In this document: in pieces, positions 2,267-27,192 of the stretch
Layout of the letters: every line of letters begins with the position of its first letter
Numbering within the stretch: position 1 is the stretch's first letter
Source of the DNA: Candidatus Heimdallarchaeota archaeon
GTDB taxonomy: Archaea > Asgardarchaeota > Heimdallarchaeia > Heimdallarchaeales > Heimdallarchaeaceae
Assembly: GCA_021399395.1 (NCBI GenBank)
Contig: JAAFKJ010000042.1
Location: forward strand, 1-31,812
DNA length: 31,812 nucleotides
Reading direction: 5' to 3'
Notes under the pieces: model-generated
What the model was told of the DNA's origin: nothing
What the model saw: the letters and a program-made list of their open reading frames with translations, nothing else
Database searches by the model: none
Program-made: the position numbers and the translations under genes

Positions 2267-3988
2267 TTGTTTGGGATTGATTTGACGAAGAAGATAGTTG
2301 TTATTGGTGGAGTAGCTGGTGGAGCTTCAACAGCTGCAAGATATAGAAGACTGGATGAATTTGCAGAAATCATAATTCTTGAGAGAGGATCATTTGTTTC
2401 GTTCGCAAATTGCGGATTACCCTATTATGTTGGGGGTGTTATTCAAGATAAAGAGAACCTTGAGCTTGTTACACCAGAGATGTTTCAAGATCGTTTTAAT
2501 ATTGATGTGAGAATCAATACAGAAGCTTTGTTTATCGACAGAGAAAACAAGAAAGTAGAAGTTAGTAATCTAATAAATGACTCAAAGTATAATCTTGAAT
2601 ATGATACACTTGTTCTATCACCGGGAGCAGAACCGATTAGGCCACCATTCAAAGGAATGGAAGAAGTTCCTGTTTTTACACTGAGAACCATCCCAGATAC
2701 TTTGAAAATAACTGAGCATATTGAGAAACATCAACCTAAGAAAGCCACAGTTGTGGGAGGAGGTTTTATCGGTCTAGAAATGGCAGAAAATCTTCATGAA
2801 AAAGGCATTGAAGTTACGATTATTGAGCTAATGGACCAAGTTATGATAACTTTGGATCGAGAAATGGCCCAATATGTACACTTTGAATTGTATCGCAATG
2901 AAATTGAACTTATACTAGGAGATGGAGTAGATTCTTTTGAAAGGAATGAAACTGGTCAAGCTAGTGTAATTACACAAAGTGGTCGGAAATTTCCAACAGA
3001 TCTTGTTGTTCTAGCAATTGGAGTTCGTCCTGAATCAAAATTAGCAAAAGAAAGTGGTTTAGAACTAGGTAAGAGAGGGCATATTCTTGTAAACAAACAA
3101 ATGCAAACATCTGATCCAAACATCTACGCTGTCGGAGATGCAGTTGAAGTAACTAATTTTATTACACAAAAAAGAATAACTATCCCTTTAGCTGGTCCTG
3201 CTAACAAACAAGGTAGAATAGCTGCAAATAACATTGCAGGTAAGACTGAGGAATATGAAGGTGTTCTTGCTGCAGCTGTTGTGAAGGTTTTCGATATAAC
3301 AGTTTCTCAAGTTGGATTAAATGAAAAAGATTTGAAGTCTAATGAAATTGAATACGAGAAAGTCTATCTCCACCCAATGAATCATTCAGGATATTATCCA
3401 GGTGCTGATAAATTAGCACTCAAAGTACTATTTGAAAAGAATACTGGTAAAGTTCTAGGAGCACAAGTTTTGGGTGGAAGCGGTGCAGAAAAAAGGATAG
3501 ATGTGATTTCAACAATAATTCATTTTGGTGGAACTGTATTTGACTTAGAAAAATTGGAACTAACTTATGCACCTCCATTTGGTTCAGCAAGAGATCCTGT
3601 TAATATGGCAGGGTATATTGCAACAAACATCATTAAACAAGATGTTAAGATAATTCACTGGCATGATATATCAAGTATTCAACAAAATGAAGGTTTAATT
3701 CTCGATGTGAGAAGAGATGATGAATTCGAACTTGGTACTATTGAAGGTGCAAAACATTTCTCTGAATTTGAGATAAGAAGTAGATTAGATGAAATACCAA
3801 AAGATGAAAGAATTTGCTTGTGCTGTCAAGAAGGGTTTAGAGCTTATATAGTACAGAGAAATCTCTCTCAACGAGGATATAAGGTGTGCAATCTCGTTGG
3901 GGGGTATAAAACCTATAAAATGGCTACAGCTTCACAAGAAGAGTTGAAAGAAATGGCTAAGAATCCTCCATTTCGTATCATTTTCTAA
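2267..3988 (+). CDS. cdr: CoA-disulfide reductase / NADH-dependent persulfide reductase with C-terminal rhodanese domain
   Basis: FAD motif IGGVAGGASTA, active site SFANCGLPY, NAD motif GGGFIGLE, TSDPNIYAVGD, YYPGA, YAPPF, rhodanese DVR...CCQEGFRA...NLVGGY. Confidence 0.92.
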   Translation: MFGIDLTKKIVVIGGVAGGASTAARYRRLDEFAEIIILERGSFVSFANCGLPYYVGGVIQDKENLELVTPEMFQDRFNIDVRINTEALFIDRENKKVEVSNLINDSKYNLEYDTLVLSPGAEPIRPPFKGMEEVPVFTLRTIPDTLKITEHIEKHQPKKATVVGGGFIGLEMAENLHEKGIEVTIIELMDQVMITLDREMAQYVHFELYRNEIELILGDGVDSFERNETGQASVITQSGRKFPTDLVVLAIGVRPESKLAKESGLELGKRGHILVNKQMQTSDPNIYAVGDAVEVTNFITQKRITIPLAGPANKQGRIAANNIAGKTEEYEGVLAAAVVKVFDITVSQVGLNEKDLKSNEIEYEKVYLHPMNHSGYYPGADKLALKVLFEKNTGKVLGAQVLGGSGAEKRIDVISTIIHFGGTVFDLEKLELTYAPPFGSARDPVNMAGYIATNIIKQDVKIIHWHDISSIQQNEGLILDVRRDDEFELGTIEGAKHFSEFEIRSRLDEIPKDERICLCCQEGFRAYIVQRNLSQRGYKVCNLVGGYKTYKMATASQEELKEMAKNPPFRIIF

Positions 3989-3992
3989 GATA

Positions 3993-5123
3993 TCAATAAA
4001 TCTTGGGAAACATCTTATACTTGGCTATTTCGCGATAGTCATCCCAAAGTTTACCATATTTCTTCTTACACCGTTTTTCATCTCTCCATGCTCTTTGCAT
4101 AAGAAGAATTAGTAAAGAACCAGGGAGAATTAAAGGTAATGCGGAGATCAAACCTGTTGTCAAAACAATCACTAAATAAGTAAGAATTTCTCCAGTATAG
4201 TTTAGCTTTCTTCCCTTTCCCCAGAATCCAGAGATCAGAATTTTCCCCTCTAAAGTTTTTGCAGGTTTGAACCAGATTTTAGTATTCGGGTTTTTCTTAA
4301 ATCTATACTTTTGCAGGTTTGCACCTCTGAAAATCCAGATTGAGAGGAGATATGCAACACACAGAAAGACAATTACATAGACACTAAAAGCAAGCTCTTG
4401 GCTAATAAGGAACCATCCTGCAATTGAATAGAAGAATGGTACATAAACTGTGTCTCCCCAAACTAACATTAAACCAAAATTCTCAGACATTATATCCCAG
4501 GTTGAGAGCATGAACTCTTCGAAAACATAGTGAGTAAAAAGATAGAACCACCAGAAGGCTTGGTATAACCACATCTGTGGAAGAATATAGCCTTGATTGT
4601 TTAACTGAGTAAACATAAAACTCCAATTTATGATGGATAAACCAATTAAAGATGGCTGGTATGCAAACATTTTCAGATCAACACCCCACCAAGTTGGATT
4701 TAATTCAGAACCAAACCAAATATCATGCAGAATTCCTTTGAACCCTTTGCGTCTAGCTTCACCTTGTTTTCTTCTTCCTAGAATAAATAGTAAGATAGTC
4801 CATACTATCACAAAGATATTTGCTACTATCAAAAGAGACCAGAATCTTATAGCAATATATTCTAAGTTCCAAATATAAGAGGAGACTCTTTCGTAAAGAA
4901 CAAGTACTAATATTGCACTAAATGTTGCTAAGAGGAATAGGATTAAACCAGTTAACTTGTACTCTTTTCTAGTTCCATCTTTCAAAGGTTCTCCTAGTCC
5001 TTTGATCCCTGGTAGAAACTTTGTTCCTAGAAACATAATTGTAAAGAAAATTAGTATCATTAGAAATGCAGTAAGCAGATTCATTGGAGTTACAGGAAGT
5101 AATAATTCGAATATACCAGCCAT
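3993..5123 (-). CDS. ERG4/ERG24-family sterol reductase (Delta14-sterol reductase / LBR / DHCR7-like) integral membrane protein
   Basis: GSELNP, DIMSENFGLMLVWGDTVYVPFFYS, ANLQKYRFK, ILISGFWGKGRKLNYTGE and RAWRDEKRCKKKYGKLWDDY match family signatures. ATG 5123 follows AGGTG (the ORF track uses GTG 5132). Confidence 0.9.
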   Translation of the reverse strand: MAGIFELLLPVTPMNLLTAFLMILIFFTIMFLGTKFLPGIKGLGEPLKDGTRKEYKLTGLILFLLATFSAILVLVLYERVSSYIWNLEYIAIRFWSLLIVANIFVIVWTILLFILGRRKQGEARRKGFKGILHDIWFGSELNPTWWGVDLKMFAYQPSLIGLSIINWSFMFTQLNNQGYILPQMWLYQAFWWFYLFTHYVFEEFMLSTWDIMSENFGLMLVWGDTVYVPFFYSIAGWFLISQELAFSVYVIVFLCVAYLLSIWIFRGANLQKYRFKKNPNTKIWFKPAKTLEGKILISGFWGKGRKLNYTGEILTYLVIVLTTGLISALPLILPGSLLILLMQRAWRDEKRCKKKYGKLWDDYREIAKYKMFPKIY

Positions 5124-5308
5124 GGTTGACACCTAATTAGTATGTATTTTTGATGGTTACTTAAAACAATTATCCTTAACATCATCTATAGTTATATTAA
5201 AAAGTGCTTCATTAAAACAGAAAGCAAGCAATAGAATAAGATTTAAATATTCTCAATAAACTGAGAATGCAGTATTAGAATCTTGAGAACAAAAAAGGTC
5301 AGATAAAT

Positions 5309-9188: not shown

Positions 9189-9211
9189 TTTGTCATGTTG
9201 GCATACTAACC
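9189..9211. repeat. Left imperfect terminal inverted repeat TTTGTCATGTTGGCATACTAACC
   Basis: 19/23 identity to the reverse complement of 10580-10602. Contains the tnpB stop codon. Confidence 0.75.
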
Positions 9212-10600
9212 AAACATGGTTGAGCTTGTTTCATAGATACTGTGGGTGTCATTCCTTGTGGGTCTACACACACTCTACGTGGGTACATCACATACCCTCC
9301 TACCCCGTTCACTTTACGCGAAGGTAAAGCTTTCGGATCGCTTTTGACTAAAATGTTGTACGCAGCGTTAACATCAGCGTTGATCCTATGTCCTAGTGCA
9401 GAGGTGAACAACCCTCTAGAAGAGCGCTTACCTGCATACTTAGCTCTTTTTTGGGAAGACTCATTATCTAGAAAACTGCTCTTGGAAGTATAATCTTCAG
9501 GAATAAGAACGATATGTATCCCTTGTTCTTCACACTTGTATTTCAGCTGATTGATAATTCTCAAAAATGGGATGGTGACGAACATCTGAGTGACTTTCTT
9601 ACCCAGATTCACTTGTTGCTTCCATTGGGGGTTATAACCTATGACCACCTCATGTAAGCCACGATTTACCAACAAATCTACTAGATATTTGGTGAGCTGG
9701 TGGAGAGCGTTCTTGAGTTTCCGTCTATACTTCTCTTTCAGTTTATAGTAGGCTAGCCCATAGACTAGCTTGTGCTGTTGTTTCAGTTGTTTCTTCTGCT
9801 GTTGGACATACTGTAATCTTAGTTTTGTTTGGAGTTTCATATAATATTGGATTATGGATTTTATCCCTTTTCCGTGATCCTTGATAACAATCGGTTGATT
9901 GCCGAGGTTATCTACGAAGGTCACGAGGTTGATGGTTCCTAAATCGATGGCACCTTTTCTTGTGTTCTTTTTTCTTAGCTTGGGGAGAAATTTCTCATAG
10001 ACTAGCTCAAGAGTGTATCCCACCTTTCTAGGGATAACCCTCACTTCTTTCAGTCGAGTGCTAGCTGTCAGACGTGTTTTATAGTAAAACCCCACTTTCT
10101 GTGGTAAGACTAGCCACCCATTCTTGATCTTAGCTTGTTGGTTGGTAAGAATCGCTACACTCTCCCCATCTTTAGGTTTATACTTAGGAGGTTTGGGTAG
10201 AGCGTAGAATTTCTCGGGATGGCGCTTCCACTCCTTCTGTGCTTGAAAATACGCTTTCCAATTCCTAGTTAGAAGTTTGAGGGTGTGTTGAGCTGTATGT
10301 GCTGGTAACACTCTATAACACTCTTCTTGGTTAAGAAGAGTATTAAGATCGTAATAGTTAAGGAAACTATTTTTTTTGTTAAGTGATTGTTTTACCAGAA
10401 AATTTGCTCGACTGTAGAGGTTTTTAACTTGATGACAAAGTTTGCTTAGAGTAGGCTGAAAAGGGAGTTCAATGCATTCTACTCTCAGTACTTTACTCAT
10501 CACTTTTCTCTTTGTTTTTTCCTATAAAAGCTCCCGTAATATCTTACTTTCAGTCTTGTTTTAAGTTGATGAGTAATACGTTTAATATGACTACATGACA
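9191..10600 (-). mobile_element. Non-autonomous TnpB-only element bounded by imperfect terminal inverted repeats
   Basis: TGTCATGT at 9191 and ACATGACA ending at 10600. Interior is visibly more G/C-rich than the flanks and carries no tnpA. Inserted between the MFS stop and a poly-T tract. Confidence 0.7.
9193..10503 (-). CDS. tnpB: RNA-guided endonuclease TnpB (IS200/IS605/IS607 superfamily), rearranged RuvC-II type
   Basis: KNLYSRANF, RNWKAYF...PKPPKYK, RuvC-I AIDLG, VVIGYN (Gly at the canonical Glu position), PEDYTSK (alternative Glu), RuvC-III NADVNAAYNI. Zn-finger cysteines absent. Confidence 0.93.
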   Translation of the reverse strand: MMSKVLRVECIELPFQPTLSKLCHQVKNLYSRANFLVKQSLNKKNSFLNYYDLNTLLNQEECYRVLPAHTAQHTLKLLTRNWKAYFQAQKEWKRHPEKFYALPKPPKYKPKDGESVAILTNQQAKIKNGWLVLPQKVGFYYKTRLTASTRLKEVRVIPRKVGYTLELVYEKFLPKLRKKNTRKGAIDLGTINLVTFVDNLGNQPIVIKDHGKGIKSIIQYYMKLQTKLRLQYVQQQKKQLKQQHKLVYGLAYYKLKEKYRRKLKNALHQLTKYLVDLLVNRGLHEVVIGYNPQWKQQVNLGKKVTQMFVTIPFLRIINQLKYKCEEQGIHIVLIPEDYTSKSSFLDNESSQKRAKYAGKRSSRGLFTSALGHRINADVNAAYNILVKSDPKALPSRKVNGVGGYVMYPRRVCVDPQGMTPTVSMKQAQPCLVSMPT

Positions 10601-15510: not shown

Positions 15511-16491
15511 CTACTTTTTATTTTGTCTATAATATGGAGAACGTAGAATCAGAAATAACTGTGCTAATGGACTTACAATTCTGATAAGTTTTCTGCGCAG
15601 TTTTATTCTATTCTCAAACTCTTGTGCAAAATCCTCCAAAGTATATCGTTGAAACTTGAGTAATTCTTGTGTATCTTCTGTGTACAACCAATCTGTATGA
15701 AACCAGTCTTTCTCATGTTTAGGTTCATGGAAGCACTCTCTAGGAATTGGTCCAACACCAAATGATTTGAGTAATCTAGTAATATACTCTCCTGCTAGCA
15801 TTTGACAATTTTCTCCACCTGCTAGATTCATTATTTTGTGATTTTTGAATGCATCTATAGCATTAACGCACGCCAAACCAGCATCTCTGGAATGGATAAA
15901 TTCCAATCGTTGATCAAATGGTACCTCAAACATTAGAGAAGGAATTTTCATTGGCATTCGAAGAGAAGGAACAGCTGTTAAACGTAAAATCATCCAATCT
16001 AAGGAACTTGCTTGTAAGATTTTTTCCATCTCCCATTTCTGGAAAGCATAGAGATCATGCGATATAGGTTCTATTTCATCTGTAACCATTCGTGGTGGAG
16101 GAATATGCATTTTAGAGCCATAAATAGCTAGTGAGCTGGTAAAAATAATTCTAGGTTTCTTGTCTAGTTTTTCTACTGCTTCAACAAGGTTTTTCATGCC
16201 ACCTGCATTAACTGCATCTGCATAGTCTGGTTGTTCATCAGCTTCGGGAGGTATAATTGCACATAAATGGATAATATATTCAACACCTTGGACTATTTTT
16301 TGGACATCTTCCTTGTTGCGAATATCTCCCCAGATGGTCTCAAAATCTCCCTTTTGGGACATTATCTTTTGAACCTTTTTAGTTTGTTTTGTACGTTTAT
16401 CAAAACATCTAACATCATAACCACGTTCTAACAAAATAGATAGAGTACTCTCACCCACATTTCCAAATGGTCCAGTTAGTAAAACCTTCAT
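15511..16491 (-). CDS. Extended SDR, NAD-dependent epimerase/dehydratase (3-beta-HSD-like fold)
   Basis: LLTGPFGNVG, GDIR, IHLCA, FTSS, YAFQK (YxxxK), ILRL. Confidence 0.88.
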   Translation of the reverse strand: MKVLLTGPFGNVGESTLSILLERGYDVRCFDKRTKQTKKVQKIMSQKGDFETIWGDIRNKEDVQKIVQGVEYIIHLCAIIPPEADEQPDYADAVNAGGMKNLVEAVEKLDKKPRIIFTSSLAIYGSKMHIPPPRMVTDEIEPISHDLYAFQKWEMEKILQASSLDWMILRLTAVPSLRMPMKIPSLMFEVPFDQRLEFIHSRDAGLACVNAIDAFKNHKIMNLAGGENCQMLAGEYITRLLKSFGVGPIPRECFHEPKHEKDWFHTDWLYTEDTQELLKFQRYTLEDFAQEFENRIKLRRKLIRIVSPLAQLFLILRSPYYRQNKK

Positions 16492-20698: not shown

Positions 20699-22108
20699 CT
20701 AAATCAGCTTTAATAAAAGAGGGTTGCGTTTGATAGCTAACTCAATAGCTTTATCTACAAAACTTGAAGGAAACCCAGAATGTTCAAACAAATTACCAAA
20801 AAGCGGTTCCGCTTGCTCTTTTGAATAAAGGGAAAAGGAAGTTATGATATATGACATCGACACAAGTTTTCTTAATTCATTGAATATTTTTATTGCAGTT
20901 TTAGTAATATCCTCATTGACACTTTTCTCAAATAATCCGAAGAAATATTCACTCTGTTGCTGACCTTTAACAGTTCCTTCTAACAGATTAATTTTCATCA
21001 AATCTTTATATTCTGCTTTAGATAAATCCAGTTGATTAAATGTCCCAATATTCATTCCACATAGACTAGTATCTAATTCAGTTAGAGCGGAAATAGCATC
21101 CTCTTGAATAGTTATCCAGCTTTGTACCTTTACTGCAAGATGTTGATTAAACATCGAAAGAGTATCAATTGCAAGCTTTACAGTTAATTTGTCTCCTGCT
21201 AACAGTACTTTTCTTCCACTAATAACAGAGTATAGTACATCACTAATTTGTCTTGGAATAGCCGTGGAAAGGAATGCTAAAGAAAGTTCCTCAACATCTG
21301 TATGAGTAAAATGATTACCGGGATCTTCCATATTTTGGATAATGTCAAGAATATCTAACATCTCGAAATTATAATCTTGATCGGTCAAAATGCGGAGTTT
21401 TTCTTCAATCAATGGAAATAATCGAAAGACCGTATGGTCTAAATCGGGTTTGAATTTTAATATTCCTACATTTGTTCTCATTTCAGCTTTTTCTATTATA
21501 ACCAGTTCTGATGTTTTCTTCTGAGGTACAAATAGTAGCATTCCAGTTAGTTTCTTATCAAAATCATAAGTCAGTCTGTGCTGAATAATCATGTTTAGAG
21601 TTTCTATAGTTTCTTCTTTCTTACCAACAGATTCTATAATCTCTGTATCTGTTTCATCAAAGTGAATTAGACTAAAAACAAAAGGTTCAGATTCTCTTAG
21701 AGGATTCTTTGAGAAAAATAATGGTAAGTTGAAGATATTATGAAGAACATGTTCTAGAATTAGTTCAGCTTCACCTTCACTTATTAAAGTTTCATCTCTA
21801 CCTTCAAGCATAGGAGATGCACTAAGTTGTATCTGTTCTAATATTTGAGCGAGTTGACGGTCTGAGAAGAAAGTCTCTTCAACTTTAGTTTCCATGATGA
21901 ATATGAAATCGTGAACTTCAGCAAATGAGATGTTTTTATCATGATAGGATATAGATTGTAATTCTTGTCTATGAACTTCTTTTGCGAATGTAATAATTGC
22001 ACTGATAAGGCTTGTAGCCAATATCTGTTGAGTGTCATCTGCTGATTCTGGTTTTGAAGCTAACAATAATCCTGATGCCGTTACTAATGATAATTGTAAG
22101 CTTTGCAT
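20699..22108 (-). CDS. Longin + DENN-like protein (SMCR8/folliculin-like C-terminal core), paralogue B
   Basis: N-terminal longin pattern SLVTASGLLL...LATSLISAIITFAKEV and C-terminal VLYSVISGRKVLLAGDKLTVKLAIDTLSMF. Confidence 0.65.
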   Translation of the reverse strand: MQSLQLSLVTASGLLLASKPESADDTQQILATSLISAIITFAKEVHRQELQSISYHDKNISFAEVHDFIFIMETKVEETFFSDRQLAQILEQIQLSASPMLEGRDETLISEGEAELILEHVLHNIFNLPLFFSKNPLRESEPFVFSLIHFDETDTEIIESVGKKEETIETLNMIIQHRLTYDFDKKLTGMLLFVPQKKTSELVIIEKAEMRTNVGILKFKPDLDHTVFRLFPLIEEKLRILTDQDYNFEMLDILDIIQNMEDPGNHFTHTDVEELSLAFLSTAIPRQISDVLYSVISGRKVLLAGDKLTVKLAIDTLSMFNQHLAVKVQSWITIQEDAISALTELDTSLCGMNIGTFNQLDLSKAEYKDLMKINLLEGTVKGQQQSEYFFGLFEKSVNEDITKTAIKIFNELRKLVSMSYIITSFSLYSKEQAEPLFGNLFEHSGFPSSFVDKAIELAIKRNPLLLKLI

Positions 22109-22199
22109 AGTAATTTAATCTAAAACATCATTTAAGTAAATTTCTTTAGTGCTAACGCTGTGGGAAAAGTTTTTCTTCAGCCCATGTTAACTGAATTTA

Positions 22200-22955
22200 A
22201 TGAAAGATGACACTATTTTTCTTCAAGAGGCAGTTCATAAAGCTTGGGTAGCCAAAGACAATGTTCTCTATAAAGGATGGATTTTAAGATTATCTGAAGG
22301 GATTACAAAGAGAGCAAATAGTGTTCTTACACTTAGATATTTTGGTGATAATGTAGCAGCTGATATAGAAAATGTCGAGACAATCTATAGAAGCAGAGAT
22401 CTTCCTGTAATTTTTCAGATTGCAGATTATCATCAACCAGAAAATATTATGGGTATTCTAGAATCATTAGGCTATCATCCTTGTGATGAAACTATTGTTA
22501 TGAATAGAAATCTCAAAGAGTTTAAAATAACAAAATGGGATTCAAAAATATCTTATACTACTGAAGTTGGCGTTGCAGATTATTGGTTTGAAACTCTAGA
22601 AAGACTAAGTACTAGTTCTTCAACAAGAATACTTGGAATTAGAAGTATTGTTGACAGGTGTACATTTGGCAAAATCACTTGCTATGCTCAAGAAAACAAA
22701 GAGATTATAGGAACCGTGCTTGGGATAATAGAAGCTGATAATCTTGGTATCTACAACCTAATAGTGAATCCAGATAGAAGACGGGAAGGAATTGGAGAAA
22801 AAATCATGTTAAAAGTGATGAACTGGGCACAAGAAAATGGGATTAAATCAATCTATTTGGCAGTTGAAAAAAGTAATTTAGAAGCTTTAGCACTATATAG
22901 AAAACTAGGATTCGATAAGAAATACTGTTATAGATATTATGAGAAAGATGAATAA
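22200..22955 (+). CDS. GNAT family N-acetyltransferase
   Basis: GWILR...TKRANSV, LIVNPDRRREGIG (motif A), LAVEKSNLEALALYRKLGF (motif B). Confidence 0.92.
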   Translation: MKDDTIFLQEAVHKAWVAKDNVLYKGWILRLSEGITKRANSVLTLRYFGDNVAADIENVETIYRSRDLPVIFQIADYHQPENIMGILESLGYHPCDETIVMNRNLKEFKITKWDSKISYTTEVGVADYWFETLERLSTSSSTRILGIRSIVDRCTFGKITCYAQENKEIIGTVLGIIEADNLGIYNLIVNPDRRREGIGEKIMLKVMNWAQENGIKSIYLAVEKSNLEALALYRKLGFDKKYCYRYYEKDE

Positions 22956-22962
22956 AATAGGT

Positions 22963-24369
22963 CTAGAGTAAATAATCAAGTAACATATTCCTTTTTACTG
23001 TCATCTCAAGAGCTTTTCTAACGAAACTAGATGAATAACCTGATTTTGAACTCAATTCTTTCAATTTTATTCTCCCTTTGGTTTCATCAACTAAACTTAT
23101 TGATGTTAAATCAAGTGATAAAGAAACAATATTCTCTAACTCCAAAGCTATTTTTGTCACTAGTTCTGAAATTGAGAGTTTTTTGATGGTATCATACAGT
23201 TTTTTGAAATGACTACTTGATTTTAATCCGGTTGTTTTCCCCGAATTTAAATTGATACTTGTATCAGATTCAGTTAAAGTTTCATTATCGAATAAAATCT
23301 TGTATACCTTTGTAGACATCCCACATATACGGGCAGTCAAATCACATTTTCCATTTTGAGTTATTTCAGTTTCTGAAATCCATGGGTTAACAGATGTTTG
23401 CATGTGTTGATTAAATATTGAAAGTGTGTCAATGACAAGTTTTACAGTGGGTTTATCGCCTATTACAAAAATCGGCTCTCCAACAACTGCTGAATAAATA
23501 GCTTTATCCAGATTTCGACCAACTATTCTTTCCAAGAAAGACGGAGACAAATCTTCTAGGTTAATACTAGAGATTCTATTTCCAGGATCATCAATATCCA
23601 TTAGAGTGTTAATAATCTCTTCCATATTGTGATCACTTTCTTCTTCTGATAGAATGTGAAGCATTTGATCCATCATAGTAAATAATCTGAATAAAACCAA
23701 ATCTAATTCTCGAGGAGTTTTTAATATACCAATTTTGGAGGTTTGACCATCAGTATCTACAATTATGTAAACGGTACTATTATCTTCAGGAAGATGTGTT
23801 ATTATTCCTCTTAGAGCACCTTTACATTTCTCATTGGCTTTTAGAGTGTCTAACATAAGAGCTATCGTCGGTATAAAAGAGCCAGAACCAACTTTATCCT
23901 TAATTTCCCATCCTTTATCTGTATGCAAGAGAGTAAACTGAGCACGCTCTGCCTTGTGTAATGGTTGTTCTGATATAGAATAATGAAGTAGTTGAATATC
24001 TTGTAAACATTTATCTAAGATTATTTCTGCTTCCCCATCAGTTATTATATCGGGGTCAACTCCTTCTAAAATTGGTTCGGTACAAGACTTCAGCTGTTCT
24101 AGTAACTGTCCCAGTCTTTTCTCTGTTAGAGTTGAATCTTCATCTATTGTTTCAAGGATAAGAACGAAATCATGAACTCTAACAAAAGAGACCGTGCGAT
24201 CATGATAAGAGATTGATTGTAACTCTCTATGATGAACTTCTTTTGAGAATGAAATTAATGCTGTCATTAAGCCAGTAGCAAGAATTTGTCTAGTATCATC
24301 TACAACTTCTGGCTTTGAAGCGAGTAGAATACCTGTAGAGGTTACTAGTGATACCTTAATGTTAAGCAT
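22963..24369 (-). CDS. Longin + DENN-like protein (SMCR8/folliculin-like C-terminal core), paralogue A
   Basis: N-terminal SLVTSTGILL...LATGLMTALISFSKEV and C-terminal AIYSAVVGEPIFVIGDKPTVKLVIDTLSIF. Colinear with 20699..22108. Confidence 0.65.
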   Translation of the reverse strand: MLNIKVSLVTSTGILLASKPEVVDDTRQILATGLMTALISFSKEVHHRELQSISYHDRTVSFVRVHDFVLILETIDEDSTLTEKRLGQLLEQLKSCTEPILEGVDPDIITDGEAEIILDKCLQDIQLLHYSISEQPLHKAERAQFTLLHTDKGWEIKDKVGSGSFIPTIALMLDTLKANEKCKGALRGIITHLPEDNSTVYIIVDTDGQTSKIGILKTPRELDLVLFRLFTMMDQMLHILSEEESDHNMEEIINTLMDIDDPGNRISSINLEDLSPSFLERIVGRNLDKAIYSAVVGEPIFVIGDKPTVKLVIDTLSIFNQHMQTSVNPWISETEITQNGKCDLTARICGMSTKVYKILFDNETLTESDTSINLNSGKTTGLKSSSHFKKLYDTIKKLSISELVTKIALELENIVSLSLDLTSISLVDETKGRIKLKELSSKSGYSSSFVRKALEMTVKRNMLLDYLL

Positions 24370-24461
24370 TAATAGATTTTGTAAATTAGCTATATATTAA
24401 AATTTACTTTAAGCAGTACTTCAAAAAATAGATAGAAAATGATAAGATAGAATGATTTGAA

Positions 24462-25322
24462 CTACTTCATTCTTTTCTCGCGATTTCTCTTATCACGAAT
24501 CTCATCCATTATTTCAGGAGTTAGAGTAGTAACACCCATTTCCTCAGCTTGCTTAACAATCTGTGTCATAGCTTTCTTAAGAAAAACTCTTGGAATAGCA
24601 ACAATCTTTGCACAAGCTTCATCAGTCCAATGAACATCAGAATCAAGTCTATCGGCTTGATAACGAACAGTACCTAAATCTACGCCTTTGCCTTTTGGTA
24701 ATGCTTCTGAATATGGAGTTCTAGGTTCACTGAACCAGAAGTGTTTATTGTCTCGATAACCATAATCGATTGGTAAAGATGGAAATTTCCCGTTCCCTTC
24801 GACAAGAGCGTTATGCCATTTCTTCTTCATCAAAATTCGATCTATTCGTAAGAGAAAGTGACTCTCATCTTTTGTCCCATTATAGTGAAAAGATTCACCA
24901 TCATCCCAGGTACATTCAAATATCTGAACCGATTCTTGGACATACTTAGGTATTTTTCCATTGGTCATTTTGCCGTTTGACGGTTGCAAAGTAAAGATGC
25001 TATCATTAAGTTTTTCTTCCGATGTTTGACCTGGAAAACCTAATTTTACTGTATTCTTCAATATTTTCTTATCATAAGGTATGAAGTTCAAAGTAGCTTT
25101 TCTTGTTCGTAGAACATTCTGTGCAGTATTACTAGTGTTTCTTGAAATCAGCATCATTGCATGTTGATCTGCTATTCCAAATGGAAAAACTAAGGAGTAA
25201 GGTCCAATGTTAGTAACACCAGTTTCAGAGATTGTCGTTATTAAAACAACCGGCATAGGATAAAATGACGAGGTTTGATAAAAATTATCCAATATTCGTA
25301 CTTCTTCAAAGTCGTTTGTCAT
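24462..25322 (-). CDS. Flavin reductase-like (DIM6/NTAB split-barrel) protein fused to a C-terminal PCP_red-like domain
   Basis: PMPVVLITT...NIGPYS...SNTAQNV...ATLNF...FEC, then C-terminal WTDEA...IPRVF...AEEMGVTTLTPEIMDEIR. Confidence 0.78.
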   Translation of the reverse strand: MTNDFEEVRILDNFYQTSSFYPMPVVLITTISETGVTNIGPYSLVFPFGIADQHAMMLISRNTSNTAQNVLRTRKATLNFIPYDKKILKNTVKLGFPGQTSEEKLNDSIFTLQPSNGKMTNGKIPKYVQESVQIFECTWDDGESFHYNGTKDESHFLLRIDRILMKKKWHNALVEGNGKFPSLPIDYGYRDNKHFWFSEPRTPYSEALPKGKGVDLGTVRYQADRLDSDVHWTDEACAKIVAIPRVFLKKAMTQIVKQAEEMGVTTLTPEIMDEIRDKRNREKRMK

Positions 25323-25327
25323 TTAGT

Positions 25328-26161
25328 TCACCTCTTCTGTAATTGTTGGTATTGCATTTCGAACCAAGATTTCTTTCGTATCATCTTTCTGTACCATGCT
25401 GGCATTACCCACCCAAGGTACATTGTAACATAAGCTGTTGCATATGCGAGTGCCCTAAAAGCTGAAACTGTAATCATCAAAGCTGGAAGATTAGAAATAC
25501 TACTGTCAAAAGCTGAAAGCAACCCCGCCAGAAGATATAAAAACACTCCAATACCAATTGTTTGTAATCCTCTCTTTCTAATAGGTTGATCTGATTTTCT
25601 TGCAAGCCTTAAAGCTCTAATTCCTATTCTACTTGTAACAAAAATTGAGATTACTATTTGAGCTACAAGGATGGGCCAGGTATATGAAATTGTAAATACA
25701 TCATTAGTAATGTAGGTTGGTTCTGAAAACAATGAATTTGTATAGATATTATCATAAGCAATTACAGCAGTAATAAGACCATAAATTACCATTATTATAG
25801 CAAAAAGATAGGTTTTGACAATTTCATTATCTTTTAAAATATGTCTGCAGCCAAAGAAATAGAGAAATGCAAATGCAGGGAGGATAATCATGGGAGTTAA
25901 AGATCCCATCTGATAAATAGTATCTGTCATTACACCTTCATTGTAAATGAGCGAAATACGGTATGCAATGCTAAAAGCTGATGTTAAAGAAAATAGGAAG
26001 TAAGATGAAAGTAGCATGAATGTACCAACTGTTTTCTTGCGAAAGAAGTTGACTAAGAGCGTGATAACTAGTGCTAGACTGAAAGCCATGTTTATTACAG
26101 ATGAAACAATAATGAAAAATGAAGCAGGTTCTATTAATGAAAGATCAACCATCATCATCAC
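25328..26161 (-). CDS. Stand-alone seven-transmembrane protein
   Basis: Seven hydrophobic segments, basic TM5-TM6 loop (RALRLARKSDQPIRKRG), basic C-terminal tail. Start overlaps the GTPase stop. Confidence 0.8.
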   Translation of the reverse strand: MMMMVDLSLIEPASFFIIVSSVINMAFSLALVITLLVNFFRKKTVGTFMLLSSYFLFSLTSAFSIAYRISLIYNEGVMTDTIYQMGSLTPMIILPAFAFLYFFGCRHILKDNEIVKTYLFAIIMVIYGLITAVIAYDNIYTNSLFSEPTYITNDVFTISYTWPILVAQIVISIFVTSRIGIRALRLARKSDQPIRKRGLQTIGIGVFLYLLAGLLSAFDSSISNLPALMITVSAFRALAYATAYVTMYLGWVMPAWYRKMIRKKSWFEMQYQQLQKR

Positions 26162-26685
26162 CCGATAAACTCATCAACAAACCATTTGAAGGAATTGAAT
26201 ATTCCATCTCCTGTCTTTGCTGAAGTTTCAAAAACTGCCCATTTAAAAGGCAAATCCAGCAAATTGAATTCTTCAATAAAGAGTGATTTTTCTATTACGT
26301 TGGGTTCATCACTCTTATTGAGCAAAATCAGTATTATCAGATCTTGATCCAATTGTGCGTGAATGGTTTGTTCAAACACTTCCTTTGCTTCATCAAATCT
26401 CATAACATTAGATCGATCAATAACGAATACAATTCCATCAGATTTTTCGTTGATATTGTGCCACATGTTTCGAAAATCTTCTTGACCAGCTAAATCAAAA
26501 ACATTAACCTGCAAATTTGGTAGATGTAGAGTTTCTCTGTTAACACCCATAGTCGGTGTTGTATCAACAAATTCACCAGTTTCTAGAAATCTCAGTATTG
26601 TTGTTTTACCAGCATCATCAAGACCACAGATAGTTATATCTGCATGCTTTGTTCTGGTTCGGAATAGTCTTTGTAAGAATGACAT
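26158..26685 (-). CDS. Arf-family small GTPase
   Basis: G1 GLDDAGKTT, G2 PTMG, G3 DLAGQ followed by FRNMW, G4 NKSD, G5 TSAK, N-terminal amphipathic MSFLQRLF. ATG 26685 follows AGGTG (the ORF track uses GTG 26697). Confidence 0.93.
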   Translation of the reverse strand: MSFLQRLFRTRTKHADITICGLDDAGKTTILRFLETGEFVDTTPTMGVNRETLHLPNLQVNVFDLAGQEDFRNMWHNINEKSDGIVFVIDRSNVMRFDEAKEVFEQTIHAQLDQDLIILILLNKSDEPNVIEKSLFIEEFNLLDLPFKWAVFETSAKTGDGIFNSFKWFVDEFIG

Positions 26686-26697
26686 TTTATTCCACAC

Positions 26698-27192
26698 CTA
26701 GTCCCAAAGATCGTCAGATAACGCGTCTATAGCATTGCCATTTTTGTCATTCCCTTGTTTTGGAAAATCAAATTTTATGGTTGAAGTAGAAGTTATCTCG
26801 ATCTTGAATTGTCCTTTGTTAAAGCCTTTGTATAGTTTTGGTAGAATTTCTTCCAGAGTATGTGTTGCGAGTAAATCTTTCTTTTCAAGTTCTGCTACTA
26901 CCCATGAGAACACCTGTTTTATAGAGTTTGCATCATAGTTGCTGGTATTAAACACAGCGACTAATGAAGCAAGATTATCTCTGTTTTCTGCAGATGGTAT
27001 GCGAAAGATAAAACTTGTTAAATTCAGATTATTAAAGGTCGTTGAAGCAAAATCCCCAGGATTGGATCCCATAGGGATGGTTTTGTAAACAAGCTGATTC
27101 ATGGAATCAGACGGAATGACATCAGGGAAAGATTTGACTAACTCTAATCCCCGTGTGCCCATATTGACTAAACATAAACTTAATGGTTTCAT
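26698..27192 (-). CDS. Stand-alone uDENN/longin-like protein
   Basis: LCLVNMGTRGLELVKSFP...LVYKTIPMG...SFIFRIPSAENRDNLASLVAVF fits the uDENN pattern. Immediately upstream of the GTPase. Confidence 0.62.
   Translation of the reverse strand: MKPLSLCLVNMGTRGLELVKSFPDVIPSDSMNQLVYKTIPMGSNPGDFASTTFNNLNLTSFIFRIPSAENRDNLASLVAVFNTSNYDANSIKQVFSWVVAELEKKDLLATHTLEEILPKLYKGFNKGQFKIEITSTSTIKFDFPKQGNDKNGNAIDALSDDLWD

Follow-up and report, generated by a model that had tools for sequence, protein, structure and literature searches.

The window analysed here, a stretch of 31,812 nucleotides, is contig C131 of assembly G000 (2.8 Mb, 81.8% complete, 2.6% contaminated). On its reverse strand, positions 3993–5123 hold an intact open reading frame that starts at an ATG at 5123, is free of internal stops and encodes a protein of 376 amino acids; an alternative GTG start at 5132 would give a reductase of 379 amino acids. 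Pfam, a structure model and phylogeny together identify the product (P0001) as a membrane reductase of the ERG4/ERG24 family, from the clade termed 'bacterial ERG24 homolog 1' (homolog 1 below). The assembly encodes no second member of this family, and a promoter and terminator scan performed at chance level (5 observed, 5.6 expected).

The convergent neighbour at 2267–3988 on the forward strand encodes a CoA-disulfide-reductase-like flavoprotein with a rhodanese domain and marks a conserved gene site: in 8 of the 11 carrier genomes it is present, whole or as a fragment, at most about 1.2 kb downstream of the reductase gene. It is a site marker, not an operon partner of the reductase. As originally predicted, genes for squalene monooxygenase and cyclase are absent from the window, with no such family among the 27 open reading frames scanned.

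The archaeal host named in the original prediction is borne out by the contig, whose composition is typical of the assembly (34.1% GC; tetranucleotide closeness to the whole assembly 12th among 43 contigs longer than 20 kb). A Pfam scan detected an Arf-family GTPase on the same contig, and the nearest named locus is from Candidatus Heimdallarchaeota archaeon, with a reductase 82% identical and ten neighbour genes in common. Contamination was excluded as the source of the gene because orthologues in independent genomes share its site, and because both GC content and tetranucleotides are host-like.

Two further features of the window deserve mention. An IS605-family TnpB-like gene (PF01385, PF07282) is located at 9193–10503 on the reverse strand, and a copy with 71% identity to it is found immediately upstream of the reductase gene at locus L031. 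The Arf-family GTPase gene (26158–26697) is part of a region (20699–27192) that also contains two related proteins of 468–469 amino acids with no Pfam match (20699–22108 and 22963–24369) and a 164-residue open reading frame, and that by eye resembles an Asgard small-GTPase regulator cluster.

Structure and active site

Membership of the sterol reductase family was confirmed by PF01222 (ERG4_ERG24; 215.3 bits, E = 1.7e-63, cut-off 27, model positions 69–432), the sole Pfam match of the protein, and by a sequence match over residues 36–376 (E = 8.2e-50) to MaSR1, the Δ14-sterol reductase of Methylomicrobium alcaliphilum (PDB 4QUV); no NCBIfam model matched. An AlphaFold2 model computed from a 111-row alignment (pLDDT 95.2) was compared with known structures using Foldseek, and the two chains of 4QUV were the only matches past E = 0.001 (E = 3.7e-21, TM-score 0.83, rmsd 3.1 Å), with SRD5A2 and ICMT far lower. 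The model thereby predicts a MaSR1-type multi-helix membrane fold for the archaeal protein. Although the two proteins share this fold and the equivalents of Tyr241, Asp257, Asn359 and Arg395, they are 31% identical, the archaeal protein is about 50 residues shorter at its N-terminus, and MaSR1 sits in a separate 'homolog 2' clade.

A short architecture is shared with the FACKEL/HYDRA2 (FK) type of plant Δ14-sterol reductase (369 amino acids in the plant protein), which we take to be the nearest eukaryotic type of experimentally known function. However, identity to this type is 36%, it keeps the motifs YxxDY and RHxNYxGD as well as Tyr387, and it forms no clade with the archaeal proteins. The description 'LBR-like' held for the C-terminal reductase domain, in which the equivalents of lamin B receptor N547 and R583 are kept, but not for the rest of that protein: with 376 residues and PF01222 alone, the archaeal reductase lacks the nucleoplasmic N-terminal domain, and identity with lamin B receptor was ruled out on this basis.

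Residue equivalences were taken from the alignment to MaSR1, in which Y194 corresponds to Y241, D210 to D257, D224 to D271, N308 to N359 and R344 to R395. Y241 and D363 are predicted catalytic residues of MaSR1 (PMC12489058), while N359 and R395 belong to its NADPH site (PMC4951196). Tyr194 (4542–4544, reverse strand) is the equivalent of the first of these; the position is Tyr in 13/13 archaeal-clade rows and in 112/112 of the top other matches. Equivalents of the NADPH-binding residues N359, R395, N316, K319, K406 and Y407 are all present (N308, R344, N269, K272, K355 and Y356, respectively), again in 13/13 archaeal-clade rows, and Arg344 falls in the C-terminal NADPH-side motif QRAWRDEKRCKKKYGKLWDDY (4032–4097, reverse strand). 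Residues invariant throughout the clade alignment are Tyr194, Asp210, Asn269, Lys272, Asn308, Arg344, Asp348, Lys355 and Tyr356.

Other parts of the pocket differ from MaSR1. In the motif RKLNYTGE (residues 305–312; 4188–4211, reverse strand), which contains Asn308, Lys306 replaces His357 and Glu312 replaces the predicted catalytic Asp363; elsewhere, D244 is replaced by T197 and R203 by Q156. MaSR1 Y387, presumably part of the catalytic hydrogen-bond network, corresponds to S336, and this position is not Tyr in any of the 125 clade rows, whereas FK-like rows keep D244, D363 and Y387 (7/7). The original prediction had noted RKLNY (residues 305–309; 4197–4211) in place of the usual RH(P/L)NY. 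It is a clade-wide bacterial signature: among the top matches outside the archaeal clade, Lys stands at the His357 position in 111 of 112 and Glu at the Asp363 position in 108 of 112, so that archaeal novelty could be ruled out. Glu at the latter position also occurs in other myxobacterial family members, and the archaeal protein shares the homolog-1 signature YQPSLIG / YLxTHY / RKxNYxGE. By these alignments, the pocket substitutions are traits of the whole clade and not particular to the archaeal protein.

Phylogeny

A protein search returned seven close matches (65–85% identical), followed by 112 listed at 46–54%; named organisms among the matches listed were cyanobacteria (Nostoc, Moorea), Myxococcota and other proteobacteria. 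Starting the search from a divergent clade member brought in proteins of Paramecium, Tetrahymena, Rotaria and Adineta. The main tree (IQ-TREE, LG+C20+F+G4 PMSF) was built from 67 rows hand-picked from 217 sequences; its FK-like rows include P0132, a confirmed plant Δ14-reductase (95% to Daucus). The outgroup consisted of myxobacterial proteins from other sub-families, and animal and fungal ERG24, LBR, TM7SF2, DHCR7 and ERG4 were left out of the trees.

The archaeal rows group as one clade (100/100) inside the bacterial homolog-1 clade, which is separated from the FK-like rows with full support (100/100) and stays whole once the outgroup is added. Within it they fall in a sub-clade, here called THY (100/99), together with cyanobacterial and myxobacterial proteins, and more narrowly in sub-clade S (90/97), which also holds the ciliate and rotifer rows and whose inner order is unsettled. 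The latter rows constitute a separate clade of their own (100/99). The existence of this single ciliate and bdelloid rotifer clade (P0278, P0280, P0285, P0295, P0303, P0325) inside a bacterial one suggests transfer into or between these eukaryotes.

In AU tests with 36 rows, a clade uniting the archaeal and FK-type proteins was rejected (p-AU 5.8e-5), which rules out FK orthology, while placing the archaeal and ciliate/rotifer rows together cost 2.1 log-likelihood units (p-AU 0.42). The donor lineage is not fixed, because trees with the archaeal rows as the first homolog-1 branch were not rejected either with an outgroup (36 rows, p-AU 0.073) or without one (30 rows, p-AU 0.081). By these comparisons, the nearest kin of the archaeal protein are the short (~370 amino acids) homolog-1 proteins, about 50% identical to it, and not MaSR1 or LBR.

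Distribution and inheritance in Asgard archaea

Carriers were defined by PF01222 at E ≤ 1e-15 across 400 Asgard genomes, many of them 70–90% complete. Eleven carriers were found, all in the genus of the window (11 of its 25 genomes); at this threshold the family was absent from the other 389 genomes, from the other 84 genera and from all 90 genomes with at least 90% completeness and at most 5% contamination. Many other genomes gave weak matches to the C-terminal part (below 45 bits, over a short stretch of the model), and these were left out of the count. Nine carriers have a whole or almost whole frame; the copy of G013 lies on two contig ends and that of G030 is split over two frames. Individual archaeal copies are also damaged: L128 has one in-frame TAG (860–862), the frame of L033 is broken, and L134 lacks about 146 bases. 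A near-identical protein (P0003) is whole, and the broken copies may represent assembly errors or local decay.

In an RpoB tree (30 rows covering 28 of the 31 genomes of the family, three genus genomes having given no RpoB), the 11 carriers and the non-carrier G017 form a single sub-clade (94/91), which is divided into {G000, G023, G030, G031}, {G008, G013} and the rest. The reductase tree repeats these splits for the genomes that it contains. Long rows from G012 and G031 resembled divergent paralogues and were disregarded; these RpoB-like sequences (L235 and L237) are unlike the host RpoB and possibly come from viral or contaminating contigs. The archaeal reductase is under purifying selection, with dN/dS of 0.04–0.16 in 31 of 36 pairs (the other five were saturated) and of 0.06–0.16 in the ten close pairs (dS 0.2–0.43). 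The restriction to one sub-clade, the matching splits, the conserved site and the low dN/dS together point to a single gain followed by vertical inheritance under selection.

Gene neighbourhoods in bacteria and lipid pathways of the host

We surveyed 95 loci of the clade, of which 90 could be placed on the tree (five were too short or broken). With sterol genes scored within 5 kb, on contigs many of which span only 1–4 kb and with a panel to which some loci supplied the queries, such genes accompany the reductase at 16 of 24 basal loci and at 15 of 24 THY loci outside sub-clade S. In sub-clade S, which holds the archaeal genes, a strong CYP51-like neighbour was found at 6/42 loci, enoyl-CoA hydratase or P450 genes at 6/42, a CMAS-type methyltransferase at 5/42 and an acyl-ACP desaturase at two more; no panel gene was near 20/42 loci, many of them on short contigs. 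Neighbour families were verified with Pfam for 60 open reading frames of 14 loci and with PDB for one CYP51. One genome (G660) has a CYP51-linked and an unlinked copy, both of sub-clade S, and an OSC-like match was present in 8 of 10 myxobacterial carriers tested, one of them partial.

Copies immediately adjacent to CYP51 (158 bp away in L103, 58 bp in L136), like the one in a Planktothrix cluster (L068), carry these pocket substitutions too; taken with the sterol-gene neighbourhoods, this makes the altered pocket compatible with a role in a sterol pathway. From gene neighbourhood, the bacterial clade most likely acts as a Δ14-reductase after CYP51, and sub-clade S may have diversified in function. 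The annotation of the Planktothrix agardhii plasmid record (NZ_LR882940.1; L068:1369–20755) lists a complete cluster of sterol type, with a cyclase, several P450s, squalene synthase, Rieske proteins and EBP in addition to the homolog-1 reductase. At L104, L105, L142, L145 and L151, homolog-1 genes lie directly beside a CMAS-family methyltransferase, possibly as a pair that adds and then reduces a methylene group, and two of these loci also have a gene for an acyl carrier protein or an acyl-ACP desaturase in the vicinity.

The genomes of the archaeal host, which are incomplete, yielded no pathway for sterol synthesis. Squalene synthase, P450 and fatty-acid hydroxylase were found in 0/25 genomes of the genus, with positive controls, and squalene epoxidase in 0/6 carriers tested. 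No cyclase of OSC strength was detected in 83 genomes of the class; weak partial matches occurred in 37 (best 42 bits), with none in G000 and one among the 11 carriers (G013, 40 bits). These weak PF13243 matches do not follow the reductase gene, and a link to Asgard cyclase-like proteins was discarded. Searching G000 by tblastn with the proteins of the bacterial clusters returned nothing beyond generic matches to SDRs, hydratases and methyltransferases, and no sterol uptake or catabolic gene was linked to the archaeal reductase. An ERG2 search was uninformative, since the control genomes, like the five genomes searched, gave no match. Nor was there a full-strength CMAS in 31 family genomes (best match 66 bits and partial, against 165–172 bits for myxobacterial CMAS), which disposes of a methyltransferase partnership as in some myxobacteria.

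G000 does encode an SRD5A-type reductase (C189; L263:3121–3885, reverse strand) that scores 262 bits to PbSRD5A and keeps the equivalents of catalytic E57 and Y91. Homologues occur in 20 of 25 genus genomes and 108 of 400 Asgard genomes and do not track the ERG24-type gene. SRD5A1 has already been put down as archaeal in origin (PMC12872463), and the G000 homologue may act on polyprenyl lipids instead of sterols.

Other possible lipid genes were noted in passing. An extended SDR in the window (15511–16491, reverse strand) has weak matches to 3β-HSD and to SdmB, far under the SdmB cut-off, and is conserved in the reductase neighbourhood of L031. Two of five carriers tested, but not G000, encode EXPERA proteins next to SCP2 and DegV genes; in these two (G009, L264:6886–10828; G031, L265:4644–9160), an EXPERA/EBP-domain protein, with a double domain in G009, lies near SCP2 sterol-carrier and DegV lipid-binding genes in a possible lipid-handling cluster.

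Discussion

Of the two origins offered by the original prediction, horizontal acquisition is upheld by the nesting of the gene among bacterial sequences, its narrow distribution and the rejection of an FK grouping. We consider a single horizontal gain very probable, presumably in the direction from bacteria to archaea: a homolog-1 gene would have entered, in a single event, the ancestor of one sub-clade within a genus of Heimdallarchaeia and been retained since. Its product would span the membrane several times, bind NADPH at the cytoplasmic face and receive a hydrophobic substrate from the bilayer; by analogy with MaSR1 and ERG24, a C=C bond would be reduced through protonation via Tyr194 and hydride transfer. 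Since sterol synthesis is lacking in the host, the substrate would most likely be an environmental sterol, reduced at a ring diene (such as Δ8,14 or Δ5,7) or at an alkene of the side chain; a similar proposal has been made for the ciliate members. That the substrate is a sterol we hold to be, if anything, a shade likelier than the contrary, and the complete account, in which a once-acquired bacterial NADPH-dependent reductase now acts on scavenged sterols, to be about evenly balanced. Counting against it are the altered pocket, the varied neighbourhoods within sub-clade S, the unlinked copy in G660, the lack of any sterol uptake or catabolic gene linked to the archaeal one, and an SRD5A distribution that does not follow this gene.

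The same horizontal origin would also serve an enzyme that reduces an alkene in a non-sterol lipid, such as a polyprenyl, a cyclic diterpenoid or a methylene-branched acyl chain. This alternative weighs heavily, since the pocket departs at several positions from that of the characterised enzymes (MaSR1 and the FK type); the nearest bacterial relatives include the copies beside CMAS, acyl carrier protein and acyl-ACP desaturase genes, the host cannot supply sterol itself, and long retention under purifying selection may fit an endogenous substrate better. Identical pocket substitutions are nevertheless found in the CYP51-adjacent copies (L103, L136) and in L068, no full-strength CMAS exists among the 31 family genomes, and weak cyclase-like matches occur in just one of the 11 carriers, so that on balance we find a non-sterol substrate plausible but somewhat doubtful.

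It is improbable, in our view, that the gene came from the ciliate/rotifer lineage or shares a direct transfer with it. The two groups belong to the same sub-clade, their union was not rejected, and members of both are listed close together in Fig. S14 of PMC8237579; however, none of our trees grouped them jointly with support, both are AT-rich and may attract each other by composition (the trees gave composition warnings), and the highest identities outside the archaeal clade, among the matches listed, are to bacterial and unnamed proteins. Far less likely still is a vertically inherited, pre-eukaryotic gene tying Asgard archaea to eukaryotic ERG24, FK and LBR, the other origin first suggested. 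A Heimdallarchaeia-type host, the unrejected basal position in homolog 1 and the incompleteness of many genomes (70–90%) would suit it, but the gene is missing from 389 of 400 Asgard genomes, all 90 of high quality and 84 other genera, is confined to one sub-clade of one genus, and encodes a protein 49–53% identical to bacterial proteins compared with 36% for plant FK and 31% for MaSR1. Finally, an unseen pathway to sterols or sterol-like rings, which the incompleteness of G000 and other genomes might hide, or a binning artefact is scarcely credible given the missing synthase, P450, epoxidase and cyclase genes on the one hand and the same-site orthologues with host-like GC on the other.

The presence of this family in a Heimdallarchaeon is already in print, undiscussed: the 'Bacterial ERG24 homolog 1' block in the text layer of Fig. 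S14 of Hoshino and Gaucher (2021; PMC8237579), from which the branches could not be taken, includes Heimdallarchaeota AB_125 OLS30822.1 (369 amino acids) near Tetrahymena EAR91677.1, and the main text of that paper contains no mention of Heimdall. The homolog-1 proteins described there resemble ours in length (~370 amino acids), come from myxobacteria, cyanobacteria and actinobacteria and are often encoded beside CYP51, whereas the present host lacks SQS, SQMO, OSC and CYP51. FK orthologues were also reported in ciliates, which do not synthesise sterols, with a suggested role in processing dietary sterols (PMC2817430); these and the bdelloid rotifer proteins share sub-clade S with the archaeal ones but belong to eukaryotic, sterol-ingesting hosts, and their function is itself a proposal. 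A 2025 preprint states that no sterol metabolism has been identified in Asgard archaea, while showing a START protein from Asgard to be capable of moving sterols (PMC12139934). In the literature searched, outside which most subscription papers fall, we found no biochemically characterised homolog-1 member (including any activity of the ciliate enzyme) and no prior report of the narrow distribution, the vertical retention, the clade-wide pocket changes or the sharing with eukaryotes that make no sterols; the supplements of PMC7306690, PMC10202945, PMC12004948, PMC4919349, PMC7591894 and PMC12139934 might include or test clade members.

In conclusion, the archaeal reductase gene is real, intact and selected, in all likelihood not pre-eukaryotic, and of putative sterol function. 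It belongs to a reductase clade, so far uncharacterised, whose active site is remodelled and which several hosts incapable of sterol synthesis have acquired. Nothing here alters the view of eukaryotic sterol synthesis as bacterial in origin, and the gene is no missing link to eukaryotes. As a retained and selected gene of sterol-reductase type, it nonetheless offers one inexpensive test of whether any of the Asgard archaea act on sterols, and the SRD5A-type reductase in the same genome makes the idea of sterol scavenging testable. More tentatively, and with the chances rather against it, these Heimdallarchaeia might import and remodel environmental sterols independently of O2 by combining the ERG24/FK-type reductase with the SRD5A-type 5α-reductase and the 3β-HSD-like SDR. 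If true, this would amount to an archaeal sterol-modifying metabolism, possibly yielding stanols and possibly serving the cell's own membrane, and, although the gene itself is of bacterial origin, would give the lineage nearest to eukaryotes a living example of 'use sterols before making them'.
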